64,000 nt of DNA from positions 16,392-80,391 of the forward strand of contig DAONSX010000004.1 in NCBI GenBank assembly GCA_035411425.1, in the 5' to 3' direction. The first letter of the stretch is position 1; each line of letters begins with the position of its first letter. The position numbers and the translations under genes were made by a program. A model generated the notes under the pieces. It did no database searches and was not told the origin of the DNA. It was given only the letters and a program-made list of their open reading frames with translations. This document shows positions 50,172 to 57,819 of this stretch, piece after piece. The stretch is from Bacteroidales bacterium (lineage in GTDB: Bacteria > Bacteroidota > Bacteroidia > Bacteroidales > TTA-H9).

Positions 50172-53100
50172 ATGACATTAAGATTCAACCTATTGATTTT
50201 TGTTTGTGTGTGTGGACTCATTTTCGAAAGTTTCGCCCAAACTTCAAGTTCGTCCCAAAATATCACGCTGAAATGGGATAATTATAGTCTGAAAGATACT
50301 CTTTCGGGAAATCAAAGAACCATCCTGTATTTTCATGATGCTACTAACCTTTACGAAACCGGAGGCCTCCCCATATTCATTCAAAGGATTCCTTTGAAGC
50401 AATTATCCGACAGCATTTTCGTGAAGATATTCCCTTTAATTTCGGGAGAAGACAACTCCACTGATGTCGTCTCGTCAGAGTTTCTAAACAATGAATATCA
50501 ATTCTTTATAAAAAAATTAGAAATCAATGGAAAGGCCTATGGTCAGGTTGGAATATTACCAGTACGCATACATCCTATCCATAACAAAATCGAGGTTCTC
50601 GAAAAGTTTCATTTAGAAATCACTGTGAAAGAACAGGCTTTTCAAAATTTTCCCCAGTTGAAAATGGGTACTATTCAATCGGTTTTGAGCCAGGGCGAAT
50701 GGTACAAGATTCAGATTGCCGAAACAGGCATTTACAAAATATCCTTTGAAACACTTCAGTCGCAGGGAATCAATCTAAGTGGAATCGACCCACGAAACAT
50801 TCACATCCATGGCAATGGCGGCAGGGTGCTTCCCGAAGCCAATAATATGACTCGTTATGATGATTTGATGGAAATGAGTATTTATATTTTTGGCGAAGAA
50901 GACGGGAAATTCGATCCCGGTGATTATATTCTTTTTTATGCCCAAGGCCCTGGTTCGTGGGCTTTCAATACCCAAACAAAACGTTTTCAGTTCGATAAAC
51001 ATCCTTATTCCGATTTCGCTTATTGTTATATTACCATCAACAATTCTAAAGGGAAAAGAATACAATTAAATCCACTTCCAGAGGTCGAAGCCACTCAAAC
51101 CATAACCACTTTTACGGCTTATATTCATCATGAAGAAGACTTGATCAATCTTGGTAAAAGTGGAAGGCAATGGTATGGTGAATCCTTCGATATACAAAAC
51201 ACGATGAATTTCGCGATTTCCCTCGAGGGAGTGGTTAACGGAAGCCGTGTTTTACTCGAATCGGCTGTGGTCGCAAGTTCTTATTCTATCAGCAATATGA
51301 AGATTTCAGTGGGAGAAACTCCTTTCCTTGTTCAAACTATTTCTCCTATTCCTCCCCCTTCTCTCGATTCAGATTATGGGAAAAGAAGCATAGACACAGC
51401 TTCATTTAAAGCCAATAGTACAACGGTTTCACTTTCCTATAAATATATCAAGCCTTTGAATTCTTCTCAGGCCTGGCTCGATTATTTTACCATTAACTAT
51501 CAACGTAATCTGAGTTTTTCGGGTTCACAGATGAGCTTTCGTAAACCCATGCATTATTCGAGTACCCAAGTTGTACGATATAAGATAGGAAATGCCAGCC
51601 AGAACATTCAGATATGGGAGGTGACCAATGCCTTACGGCCTATGAGGATGCAAACCCAGCTTGCGGGAAATACGCTTACTTTCGATTCGAAAAACGATAC
51701 CTTGCGTGAATTTATCGCTTTTGACGGAAACAAATTTCTAAACCCGACTTTTATTGGTAAAGTTCCAAATCAAAATCTTCATGGGATGATCGATGCAGAT
51801 TATATCATCATAAGCCATCCCGATTTCTTGTCACAAGCTCAGGAACTTGCTAATATCCATGAATCAGAAAATCAATTCAATGTAAAAATTGTAACTCCCG
51901 AGATGGTTTACAATGAATTTTCGTCGGGCATACAAGATCCAAGCGCCATTCGTGATTTTATGAGGCATTTGAGGTTGAGTTCGGGCAACATTCGTAAACC
52001 AGCATATCTTCTACTATTTGGAGACGCCTCTTACGATTATAAAGACCGCATTCAGGGAAATACCAACTTTGTACCCACTTACCAATCGGACGAATCCTTA
52101 AATCCTTCTTATTCTTTTGCTACAGATGATTATTTTACCTTTCTCGACCAAAGCGAAGGGAAAGGTGGAGGTGGAACTCCCGATCTATGTGTTGGCCGAA
52201 TACCCGTTTTCACCCAGCAACAAGCCGATGATTATATGAAAAAATTCAAACAATATATCAGTGTGAGCACGACTTCAATGGGAGAATGGCGCACCAATCT
52301 TTGTTTTGTTGCCGACGATGAAGACAATAATTCGCATTTACGCCAAGCCGATGGCCTTGCCAATTTTATCGACACTACATATCCTCATTTCAACATTGAC
52401 AAGATTTTCCTCGATGCTTACGATCAAATTACTACACCCGGTGGCCAACGATATCCGGATGTAAATAAAGATATCACACAGCGCATCGAAAACGGACTCC
52501 TCATCATCAATTACACGGGCCATGGTGGTGAGCTGGGCTGGGCTCATGAGCGAATCCTCGAAATTAGTGATATAAATTCATGGAATAACTTCTATAAACT
52601 ACCTCTGTTTATTACTGCCACCTGCGAATTCAGCCGCTATGACGATCCCCAACGCGTTTCGGCAGGAGAATATGTTTTCCTAAATCCAAAGGGAGGAGGC
52701 ATTGCATTATTTACTACATCACGATTGACCTACGGTGGTTCTAATATAACTCTTAACCAAAATTTTTACAAATATGCATTCGAACGAACGAATGGCCAAT
52801 ACCGTACCTTGGGCGAGATTATCATGATTGCCAAGCAAAAAAGCGGTTCCGACCTGAATTGGATAAAATTCATTTTGCTCGGTGATCCAGCACTAAAACT
52901 TGCCTATCCCGAGAATAAAGTTAGTGCACTTACTATCAACAATACTTCGATCGAAATTTCTACCGACACCCTCAAGGCTCTGTCGAATGTTTCCATAACT
53001 GGCGAAGTTACCGATCCTCTAAGCTATCCATTACATAAATTCAATGGAACCGTTACGACCACCATTTTCGATAAGGTCTCGCTCATCAAAACCAAGGCAA

Positions 53101-57000: not shown

Positions 57001-57819
57001 AGATTCGAAGTTTGGTTTATTCTACCAAAAGATATAGAACAGAATTATGGGTTTGGAAAATTCAGCTATTATGCCACGGATAGTATTAGTGATGCAGCTG
57101 GAGCATTTATTGATTTCATCATAGGCGGAATAGACGAAGTCTTGGCTACCGATACTGAAGGACCCGAAATCGAAATATTTCTCGACGACAAGAACTTTAT
57201 TTCGGGAAACCTCTCGAGCCCTAATCCTGTTCTGCTGGCTTCTCTGGCCGATTCTTCCGGGATTAACTGTTTCGGTTATGGATTAGGACGCAACATCTCT
57301 GCATGGATAGATGGACAAACCAGTAATGCCATCAATCTCGACGATTTCTTCGTCCCACTCGACCCATTGAATACTCGCGGAAATATCACCTATACTTTCC
57401 ATAACCTCGAAAATGGACAGCACACACTTACGCTGCGGGCCTGGGATCTTCAGGGAAATAGCAACCAAAAAACCATAAAATTTACCGTAGCACCCAACGC
57501 TTCTATCAAATTATGGAAAATCACCAATCATCCCAATCCTTTCAGTGATAAAACCTTCTTTTATTTCGAACACAATCAACCGGGAAATTCCCTGCGGATA
57601 ACTATTCATATCTTCAACTTCCAGGGAATCAAGGTAAAAACCATAAGGTCGAAGCAATCTACTTCGGGTTATAGTATAATCCCCATCGAGTGGGATGGAA
57701 GAGGCGATTCGGGAGAATTACTTCCATCGGGAATGTATCCTTATCAGATTATTGTAGAGAATAATAATGGAACTATAAGTACGCAAAGCCAAAAGTTAAT
57801 GATTATCAGGCATAATTAG
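54028..57819 (+). CDS. second full-length PorU-like C25 sortase paralogue, copy 2
   Basis: 1263 aa, collinear with copy 1 along its whole length. INYTGHGGETGW and IFITATCQFSRYDDP retain the catalytic His and Cys. It has its own signal peptide and CTD (NHPNPFSDKTFFYFEH...GMYPYQI). Confidence 0.9.
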   Translation: MTYKNITRLFFVFALVFHVFSVSAQRRILHWETLQTTTDTTLNLWLQEAAYINDSLNVPVYLEEIPLPVGSNGLEYNLKEVYFEKLESKISGIGTEIKINVTIVTECKQKKARITFIPLRINPENGQSEKLVSFEPSINFTTDKEVQFPASDFASSSLLASGKWYKIGVAQTGIYRITYHDLKKWGVNPDQIDPRTISLHGFGGRLLPESNLQKTQDDLPPVAIEVIGEEDGIFNPDDYILFYGENPHKWTLNVLGQKLTHQTNIYEDTTYYYLTYGIQNPARIEDFIPPTLSITHKIDYFTYPLLHEKNEQHLTKSGKEWYGETFNENSRQNFTFIVPDHKVGEKGIIELEVAGRSYEANSFVLSYNEQDLATIPLAGISGNLMSQLYARKGKALLNFTPQSDTIILDLTHVKNHPYSIGYLKYIEVNVIRQLIFRGPQMLFNYLPRPQTGQIPEISVQTTQPDLKIWLVDNLFQPQNIPLQNTDTSVYFKIQSYNGHYFIAFDGSSYYSPSFIEEVPNQNLHALQPAEFIIVSPKVLMNQAKRLAQIHQNREGIGTLTVDVKEIYNEFSSGAKDPSAIRNFMRMLYERAQPGEEPHYLLLFGDGSYDPKHRIPGNKWHIPTFQSQESLEMSSSFVCDDFYGLLDPEEGLDAYGAIDVGVGRFPVYTIEEAKNMVDKIENYFKEGPPAMLPWKNTFCFIADDENGNEHVKGAEKLANIVDTSSSIINVNKIYIDAYKQYSTSNGDKYPDVNKAITDQVNEGALFINYTGHGGETGWADENILTVPEIFNWNNKGKMPIFITATCQFSRYDDPERVSAGEHVIQYNNKGGVALFTTTRLTFSHTNNFLNQAFYVSLFEQLKSGNIPHMGDLIRMSKNKNNNNISIRNFSLLGDPVLIPAFPRYSIKTTHINDIPIEYFIDTLRGCQKVKISGEIVDEQENILSNFNGKIFVSVFDKKATIRTLGNDPNTTPMSFTIQNKRIAHTISKVINGRFEVWFILPKDIEQNYGFGKFSYYATDSISDAAGAFIDFIIGGIDEVLATDTEGPEIEIFLDDKNFISGNLSSPNPVLLASLADSSGINCFGYGLGRNISAWIDGQTSNAINLDDFFVPLDPLNTRGNITYTFHNLENGQHTLTLRAWDLQGNSNQKTIKFTVAPNASIKLWKITNHPNPFSDKTFFYFEHNQPGNSLRITIHIFNFQGIKVKTIRSKQSTSGYSIIPIEWDGRGDSGELLPSGMYPYQIIVENNNGTISTQSQKLMIIRHN

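Follow-up and report, generated by a model that had tools for sequence, protein, structure and literature searches.

In Porphyromonas gingivalis, PorU, which serves as type IX secretion system (T9SS) sortase, keeps its own C-terminal domain (CTD) uncleaved, and this domain holds the enzyme on the outer-membrane shuttle PorV; on dimerisation the enzyme is reported to be inhibited, as a beta-hairpin of one monomer enters the active site of the other (PMC10202324). In Chryseobacterium, porU and porV form an operon beside gldJ (bioRxiv 10.64898/2026.09.25.754504). Cargo with a type-B CTD is PorV-independent and is handled by cognate PorP/SprF-like shuttles (PMC12618676), which may shield the CTD from cleavage (PMC10202324). 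The basis on which PorU sorts effectors into those released and those attached "remains to be unravelled", in the words of a 2023 review (PMC10202324), and the literature treats PorU as one enzyme per T9SS. Here we describe two tandem porU genes in a 64,000-nucleotide (nt) stretch of a Bacteroidales contig (DAONSX010000004.1, assembly GCA_035411425.1), referred to as the window. Copies A (porU-1) and B (porU-2) occupy + strand open reading frames (ORFs) listed at 50166/50172-53999 and 54028-57819, in tandem upstream of porV; they encode 1275 amino acids (aa), counted from the ATG at 50172, and 1263 aa, and end in TAA and TAG, respectively. Comparison with related loci points to a single tandem duplication, of ancient date, in the ancestor of a deep Bacteroidales clade that is so far uncultured.

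Taken singly, neither gene stands out within the PorU family. In BLASTP the two proteins are collinear throughout and share 37% identity (55% positives) across an alignment of 1280 positions. Both cover positions 1-1094 of the 1095 in the PorU profile NF033707 (A 1350.8 and B 1212.6 bits; cut-off 420), and both contain the Pfam domain Peptidase_C25 (PF01364) with E values of about 1e-108. Each also gives a single collinear match of about 1100 residues to residues ~27-1154 of the P. gingivalis PorU structure 6ZA2 (A 168-1270, E=1.8e-148; B 152-1260, E=1.3e-143), consistent with a shared, predicted multidomain architecture. The catalytic His lies in the motif INYTGHGGELGW of A (His784) and INYTGHGGETGW of B (His771), the catalytic Cys in FITATCEFSRYDDP (Cys818) and FITATCQFSRYDDP (Cys805). 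Both residues are invariant in 247 collected PorU proteins and in 116 locus-derived PorUs, 25 second copies included. Identity between A and B is highest in the C25 domain (48%) and falls to 17% in the N-terminal 167 aa, 33% in 168-540, 38% in 913-1060, 37% in 1061-1175 and 41% in the CTD. Judged by these motifs, both copies appear to be catalytically competent Cys/His peptidase-transpeptidases.

The termini of the two proteins resemble those of exported T9SS substrates. At the N-terminus of both, a hydrophobic segment ends in A-Q, which we read as a Bacteroidota signal peptide. The type-A CTD model TIGR04183 (cut-off 23) scores A at 23.8 bits and B just below the cut-off at 21.3 bits, and the pattern PNPF...K-L-hydrophobic closes both chains. 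Both proteins appear to be exported by signal peptide and targeted to the T9SS by a type-A-like CTD of their own. Relative to 6ZA2, A and B carry ~150-165 extra N-terminal residues; the model of the long-form N-terminus, NF052318 (~140 aa, cut-off 40 bits), gives 32.8 bits with B, no reported match with A and 56.7 bits with the second copy of another locus (L030). NCBIfam PorU2 (NF052324) was considered as an identity for copy 2 and rejected: A scores 232 and B 200 bits against a cut-off of 450. Eight second copies from other loci reach 983-1293 bits with NF033707 and 152-195 bits with the PorU2 model. Since second copies fall below the PorU2 cut-off and score high on the canonical model, the tandem second copy is not PorU2.

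Both copies are under strong purifying selection. Between the window and locus L001 the ratio of nonsynonymous to synonymous substitution rates (dN/dS) comes to 0.086 in A and 0.087 in B, and between L004 and L009 to 0.068 and 0.057, ratios that are approximate because dS, at 1.0-1.7, is near saturation; the neighbours PorV, GldJ and PorP have dN/dS of 0.02-0.04. No sign of decay was found in A or B in the reading frames, the catalytic dyad or dN/dS. At the DNA level the two porU genes share no repeat longer than 56 nt (77% identity), which rules out an assembly repeat and recent gene conversion. A preliminary description of the window had reported a full-length, collinear porU pair separated by 28 nt, with the catalytic motifs as quoted above and roughly half of the positions identical in the catalytic region and fewer elsewhere. 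All of this is borne out, by the ORFs, the end-to-end alignment, the spacer (exactly 28 nt) and the regional identities (48% in C25, 17-41% in other regions). It had also held that the pair is neither an assembly repeat nor a pseudogene. The short maximum repeat and the recovery of the pair in independent assemblies agree with the former; the intact ORFs, invariant dyad and dN/dS of 0.057-0.087, with no disabling changes found, agree with the latter.

To place the pair among relatives, metagenome contigs were scanned with a broad PorU alignment and the best 80 loci (numbered with the prefix L) were taken, so that the sample leans towards the kin of copy A. Nineteen of them have the order porU-porU-porV, 45 are confirmed single-copy loci and 16 are cut by contig ends, so that 19 of 64 resolvable loci in this biased sample (30%) are tandem. 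The preliminary description had allowed that tandem porU might prove common and already characterised; common it is to this extent, but no characterising paper was found. In all tandem loci the order porU-porU-porV is constant, with gldJ and porP divergent from it. Likewise, each of the nearest relatives of copy B lies directly 3' of an orthologue of A and 5' of porV, with gldJ and porP divergent. Identity to the window copies across the tandem orthologues (L001/L007, L003, L004, L008, L009 and L073) ranges over 49-78% for A and 45-75% for B: 78% and 75% in L001/L007 (Bacteroidales bacterium UBA5762), 58% and 55% in L003, and 49-52% and 45-46% in L004, L008 and L009. One locus, L097, on a 5.27-Mb contig (ENA ERZ21831265 ctg82162c, 8001-18763), has three tandem porU genes before porV, encoding 1288, 1133 and 1133 aa; its copies 2 and 3, each of short form, share 55% identity. 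Another metagenome-assembled genome (MAG), L098, has two. A protein search with a profile of 25 second copies gave 151 matches and no addition to the earlier set; no cultured organism is among these matches, all of which are MAGs.

Several related loci show peculiarities of their own. In L024 the two porU genes are separated by an ORF (13565-15124) for a polytopic membrane protein of 519 aa, to which Pfam gives no match; by eye it resembled a GT-C glycosyltransferase, an assignment not adopted for want of a family match. In L027 (6225-8563) two tandem porV-like genes come after a lone porU; duplication can affect the shuttle too. L006 (GCA_021107685.1, 5858-9664) has a stand-alone porU (P0087) that adjoins neither porV, gldJ nor porP, is 42% and 43% identical to A and B, and shows an ambiguous preference in the profile test described below (-12 bits). 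The porU of L014 (10001-13839) appears split into two overlapping frame segments, 10001-13018 and 12976-13839, by a frameshift that is real or due to long-read assembly error. L015 (CALQEU020000001.1) carries the title of a Bifidobacterium breve MAG but a gldJ-porP-porU-porV locus of Bacteroidota, probably the sign of a mislabelled or contaminated bin.

The age of the duplication was approached through trees, all of which were built by neighbour joining (NJ) on corrected p-distances, not by maximum likelihood. In a tree of 116 PorUs labelled by their position in the locus, 22 of 25 tandem first copies fall into one clade nested among single-copy PorUs, the exceptions being L024 and the L005 pair. 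The second copies lie outside this clade, and their groups mirror those of the first copies: group W (the window, L001, L003, L073, L004, L008, L009 and L018; bootstrap 99 for copy 1 and 80 for copy 2), group X (L019, L020, L022, L023 and L038; 100 and 100), group Y (L039, L044, L049 and L062; 67 and 70) and group Z (L056, L060 and L068; 100 and 100). Such mirrored phylogenies argue for one ancient duplication kept by almost every descendant. Residues common to A and B but rare elsewhere were sought in the alignment of 247 PorUs and none was found.

Profile hidden Markov models (HMMs) of copy 1 and copy 2, built with one lineage group held out in turn, give a concordant result. All held-out first copies favour the copy-1 profile, by 114-206 bits, and all held-out second copies except that of L030 favour the copy-2 profile, by 26-102 bits; the window copies, when held out, prefer their own class by 128 bits (PorU-1) and 69 bits (PorU-2). 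About 65 single-copy PorUs were scored as well, and all but L035 favour the copy-1 profile; L035 is probably a second copy whose partner was lost beyond the contig end. As a proxy for the organism tree we used concatenated PorV and GldJ from 57 loci. Here 23 tandem loci form one clade without any single-copy locus (bootstrap 44); together with single-copy L021 they form a clade with bootstrap 82, tandem L024 joins next (bootstrap 50), and the other 31 single-copy loci lie outside. The pair is retained in about 24 of the 25 loci of the tandem clade. Within it, identity to the window falls to 48% for PorV and about 50% for GldJ, and the clade is therefore deep, in keeping with the old duplication that the preliminary description had suspected. 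Single-copy PorUs that group with tandem lineages are of copy-1 type (L021 in the PorV-GldJ tree, L042 and L029 in the PorU tree only). L005 (GCA_964395505.1, 10001-17790) lies inside the tandem clade, yet its two copies are both first-copy-like and nearest to each other (distance 0.55). This suggests that the old second copy was lost and that re-duplication or gene conversion followed.

The two copies have not diverged evenly along their length. From the 254 alignment columns in which single-copy PorUs are conserved to 80% or more, we determined the share of conserved residues kept by each copy (A numbering). In residues 168-300 and the C25 domain (541-912), copy 1 keeps 0.93 and copy 2 0.89-0.93; in 301-540 and 913-1060 the shares are 0.79-0.89 and 0.81-0.88. 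In the pre-CTD domain (1061-1175), by contrast, copy 1 keeps 0.94 and copy 2 0.77, and in the CTD (1176-1275) 0.88 and 0.77. This C-terminal tail differs significantly from the remainder (Mann-Whitney p=3.5e-6), with the effect present in each of five lineage groups. Fixed differences within the C-terminal module in group W include N1065D, G1073N, Y1120F and Y1127N. At 9 of 10 sites that are fixed differently in the A and B clades and conserved in other PorUs, A keeps the common residue. Copy 2 also evolves faster (L056-L068 distance 0.48, against 0.28 for copy 1), and several second copies, ~1130 aa long, have lost the N-terminal extra domain. By its sequence, copy 1 is the conservative, canonical-type copy resembling single-copy PorU. 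The divergent part of copy 2 includes the CTD, the element by which P. gingivalis PorU is tethered to PorV; the catalytic machinery shows no such divergence. A further observation concerns the strongly conserved pre-CTD motif G-I-G-H-D-I, which reads G-L-G-R-N-I in copy B (57265-57285, aa ~1080-1086); other members of the B clade, unlike window copy B, have G-L-G-H-D-I.

These patterns suggest to us, with about even chances of being right, that the locus encodes a housekeeping PorU (copy 1) and an accessory PorU (copy 2) with the same chemistry and different docking or partner contexts. Both enzymes would perform peptidase-transpeptidase reactions on type-A cargo delivered by PorV. They would differ in context through the remodelled last two domains of copy 2, a reading drawn from the retention of its catalytic half, the remodelling of those domains and the role of the CTD in holding PorU on PorV. 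The two contexts might be tied to different subsets of cargo or to different acceptors, as with anchoring versus release, a split that the preliminary description had also offered as a possibility. A more specific version, which we hold only tentatively and think rather doubtful, has two sortase stations, docked to different partners by their divergent C-terminal modules and using different acceptors (for example a surface glycolipid versus water or small amines), or a regulated heterodimer, deciding the fate of type-A cargo. Several points weigh against a division between housekeeping and accessory copies of a single origin. The evidence for all members of the pair comes from metagenome assemblies and from sequence. 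The NJ tree built from 247 PorU proteins never pairs A with B as sisters (bootstrap 0). Its backbone, made of very short branches, is poorly resolved, and this tree was therefore not used to date the duplication. The copy-1 clade of the 116-protein tree has a bootstrap of only 30, and with the PorU backbone so poorly resolved a single origin is argued from the mirrored subtrees, the held-out profiles and the tree of flanking genes. The more diffuse copy-2 profile could partly bias the HMM test. Few signature residues are universal to copy 2: only two shared derived gains (D743N and N1048D, A numbering) and one loss run across it, a weak diagnostic. The divergence of its C-terminal domains could reflect relaxed constraint and not a new docking function, and the three copies of L097 and the re-duplicated L005 make the family more fluid than a strict two-role model.

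Four other explanations were weighed against the split between housekeeping and accessory enzymes. An obligate PorU-1:PorU-2 heterodimer, derived from an ancestral homodimer and with one chain regulating or completing the other, would make the pair one enzyme and not two pathways. The P. gingivalis dimer with its intermolecular latency hairpin (PMC10202324), a porU/porU spacer of 0-43 nt that suits 1:1 co-production, retention of the pair in about 24 of 25 clade loci and the location of the divergence outside the catalytic domain are all in its favour. We nevertheless consider it unlikely, as the dyad is complete and the catalytic domain equally conserved in both chains, copy 1 alone suffices in some lineages (L021 and L042), one genome has three copies (L097), and in L005 copy 2 has been replaced by a copy-1-like duplicate. 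If the copies were instead redundant duplicates kept for dosage, or if copy 2 were drifting towards loss or a non-catalytic role, one could expect its faster evolution, the conserved residues lost from its C-terminal domains, the N-terminal extra domain missing in several lineages and the few lineages with copy 1 only. However, copy-2 dN/dS (0.06-0.09) equals that of copy 1, the dyad is invariant in 25 of 25 second copies, the copy-2 catalytic domain is as well retained as that of copy 1, and the pair has been kept throughout a clade whose PorV identity drops as low as 48%. Redundant copies that evolve neutrally are usually lost much sooner than such divergence implies, and we regard redundancy or decay as distinctly improbable.

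The preliminary description had ventured that one PorU might process type-A and the other type-B CTD cargo. Four type-A and one type-B cargo genes do lie within the window, and a porP/sprF-family gene adjoins the porU pair. But type-B cargo bypasses PorV and uses PorP/SprF-like shuttles (PMC12618676), such shuttles may protect the CTD from cleavage (PMC10202324), and both PorU copies sit inside the porV unit. In the metagenome loci, moreover, a porP/sprF gene lies upstream of single-porU and tandem-porU loci alike; being equally present where there is one porU, it is not linked to the second copy. This division of labour therefore fails to find support and seems very unlikely. The remaining explanation, an artefact of assembly or binning (a repeat collapsed or made chimeric, or the joining of two strains), draws on the origin of the window in a metagenome assembly and on the protein being known only from ENA and JGI contigs. 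Yet the genes share 37% protein identity and no long DNA repeat, and the ordered pair recurs with equal flanks in independent NCBI, Logan, JGI and ENA assemblies, including the 5.27-Mb contig; these independent assemblies refute the artefact, to which we assign a negligible probability.

The features of the locus are collected in the table. The position upstream of porV that had been noted beforehand stands, and gldJ is nearby, although gldJ and porP/sprF are on the opposite strand. The porU/porU spacer measures 0-43 nt across six orthologous loci, and the end of copy B is 131 nt from porV, beyond which the next gene on the downstream side is that of DnaB. A terminator scan found none between porU-1, porU-2 and porV, the first being at 59192. 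The motif TAnnTTTG, which we take to be the Bacteroidota -7 promoter consensus, occurs in the porU-2/porV spacer, ~50 nt 5' of porV, in seven of seven loci (the window, L001, L003, L004, L008, L009 and L073), against a background rate of 0.5 per kb per strand. No exact match is present on the + strand of the 238-nt porP/porU-1 intergenic region. A sigma-70 promoter scan was uninformative, with 29 matches against 26.4 expected from shuffled sequence. The two porU genes are probably co-transcribed, with or just ahead of porV, and the spacer motif suggests that porV may have a separate, additional promoter inside the unit.

Table. Features of the tandem porU locus (window coordinates)
Feature	Position	Strand	Evidence or remark
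gldJ, gliding/T9SS lipoprotein	47215..48846	-	TIGR03524, 509 bits (cut-off 458); equivalent position in related loci
porP/sprF-family outer-membrane protein gene, divergent from porU	48893..49933	-	TIGR03519, 238.5 bits; Pfam PorP_SprF
porP/porU-1 divergent intergenic region, 238 nt, presumed promoter region	49934..50171		role from position only
porU-1 (copy A), 1275 aa, canonical-type PorU, long form	50172..53999	+	NF033707, 1350.8 bits
Predicted signal peptide of PorU-1 (MTLRFNLLIFVCVCGLIFESFA, then Q)	50172..50237	+	from translation
C25 domain of PorU-1, aa 544-910 (His784 at 52521-52523, Cys818 at 52623-52625)	51801..52901	+	PF01364, E=5.9e-109
C-terminal module of PorU-1 (pre-CTD domain aa 1061-1175, CTD aa 1176-1275)	53352..53996	+	TIGR04183, 23.8 bits; ancestral conserved residues kept
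porU-1/porU-2 spacer, 28 nt	54000..54027		no terminator, no promoter-type motif
porU-2 (copy B), 1263 aa, divergent, faster-evolving PorU paralogue, long form	54028..57819	+	NF033707, 1212.6 bits
Predicted signal peptide of PorU-2 (MTYKNITRLFFVFALVFHVFSVSA, then Q)	54028..54099	+	from translation
C25 domain of PorU-2, aa 531-896 (His771 at 56338-56340, Cys805 at 56440-56442)	55618..56715	+	PF01364, E=7.7e-108
C-terminal module of PorU-2 (pre-CTD domain and CTD)	57172..57816	+	ancestral conserved residues lost (retention analysis)
TACTTTTG, Bacteroidota -7-type promoter-like motif in the porU-2/porV spacer	57898..57905	+	TAnnTTTG match
porV, single copy, outer-membrane shuttle for type-A CTD cargo	57951..59141	+	NF033710, 515.7 bits (cut-off 250)
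Intrinsic-terminator-like hairpin (59192-59215) and T-run, 3' of porV	59192..59225	+	8-pair stem (5 G-C), then TTTTTT

Elsewhere in the window, cargo of both CTD classes is encoded, as had been claimed. The type-A genes (TIGR04183, 36-42 bits) are at 4600-6078 (-), 6110-8899 (-), 17331-19850 (+) and 20086-21687 (+), and the type-B gene (CHU_C, 70 bits) is at 34656-35957 (-). Two adjacent genes at 26971-28356 (-) and 28538-30604 (-) match the subunits GatD (495 bits, cut-off 310) and GatE (457.2 bits, cut-off 456) of the archaeal-type Glu-tRNA(Gln) amidotransferase. GatDE is regarded as an archaeal system, and its genes are unusual on a Bacteroidales contig. A V-type ATPase operon (subunits K, I, D, B, A and E; 36472-44027, -), the [FeFe]-hydrogenase maturase HydF (11050-12279) and the selenouridine synthase MnmH (33627-34643) fit an anaerobic lifestyle. 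Finally, the product of a gene at 12299-15133 (+), 944 aa long, has an FGE-sulfatase domain at its C-terminus (Pfam E=1.8e-39) and resembles GldK weakly; no family matches its other ~700 aa.

Multiple porU genes were not described in any paper found by full-text literature searches, an absence that is no proof of absence; text matches to "PorU2" turned out to be superscript citation numbers. The conserved arrangement of two and occasionally three sortases, the single ancient origin of the pair in a large uncultured Bacteroidales clade and the domain-specific divergence of the second copy all appear to be new. Because annotation pipelines name both genes just "PorU", the paralogy is invisible in databases, and the second copy will escape genome surveys in which T9SS completeness is judged from whether porU is present. 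An intact PorU pair that has diverged in its C-terminal domains rather than its active site offers a concrete handle on the choice between attachment and release, and a conserved two-sortase T9SS, if that is what the locus encodes, would be a natural experiment on it.

Set beside P. gingivalis PorU (PG0026; 6ZA2), the window proteins have in common the C25 Cys/His domain, the immunoglobulin-like domains that follow it and a putative C-terminal sorting domain, as well as linkage to porV. The P. gingivalis enzyme lacks the extra N-terminal domain (~150-165 aa) of both window proteins, and P. gingivalis presumably has one porU, whereas the window has two, 37% identical, kept as a pair and with copy 2 diverged in its pre-CTD domain and CTD. 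That PorU-related paralogues exist has already been recognised by the curators of NCBIfam, who define PorU2 (NF052324) and PorV2 (NF052325) as a putative second sorting system. The window proteins, however, give only partial matches to PorU2 (232 and 200 bits); they and the eight other second copies score 980-1350 bits with the canonical PorU model, and the locus has no PorV2 gene, its single downstream gene being canonical porV. Gram-positive bacteria combine a housekeeping sortase A with accessory sortases for particular substrates. The resemblance is one of analogy, in that a conserved housekeeping transpeptidase and a faster-evolving accessory one would be encoded close by; Gram-positive sortases are beta-barrels whereas PorU has the clan CD C25 fold, and their sorting signal and acceptor are unrelated to those of PorU. 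The closest layout is that of single-copy loci (Flavobacterium johnsoniae, Chryseobacterium and many Bacteroidota MAGs, including the 45 confirmed metagenome loci), in which, as in the window, gldJ and porP/sprF are divergent from porU, and porV follows. In the window clade, by contrast, porU is parted from porV by one further copy, or rarely by two; the first tandem copy resembles the porU genes of single-copy loci, and the second does not.

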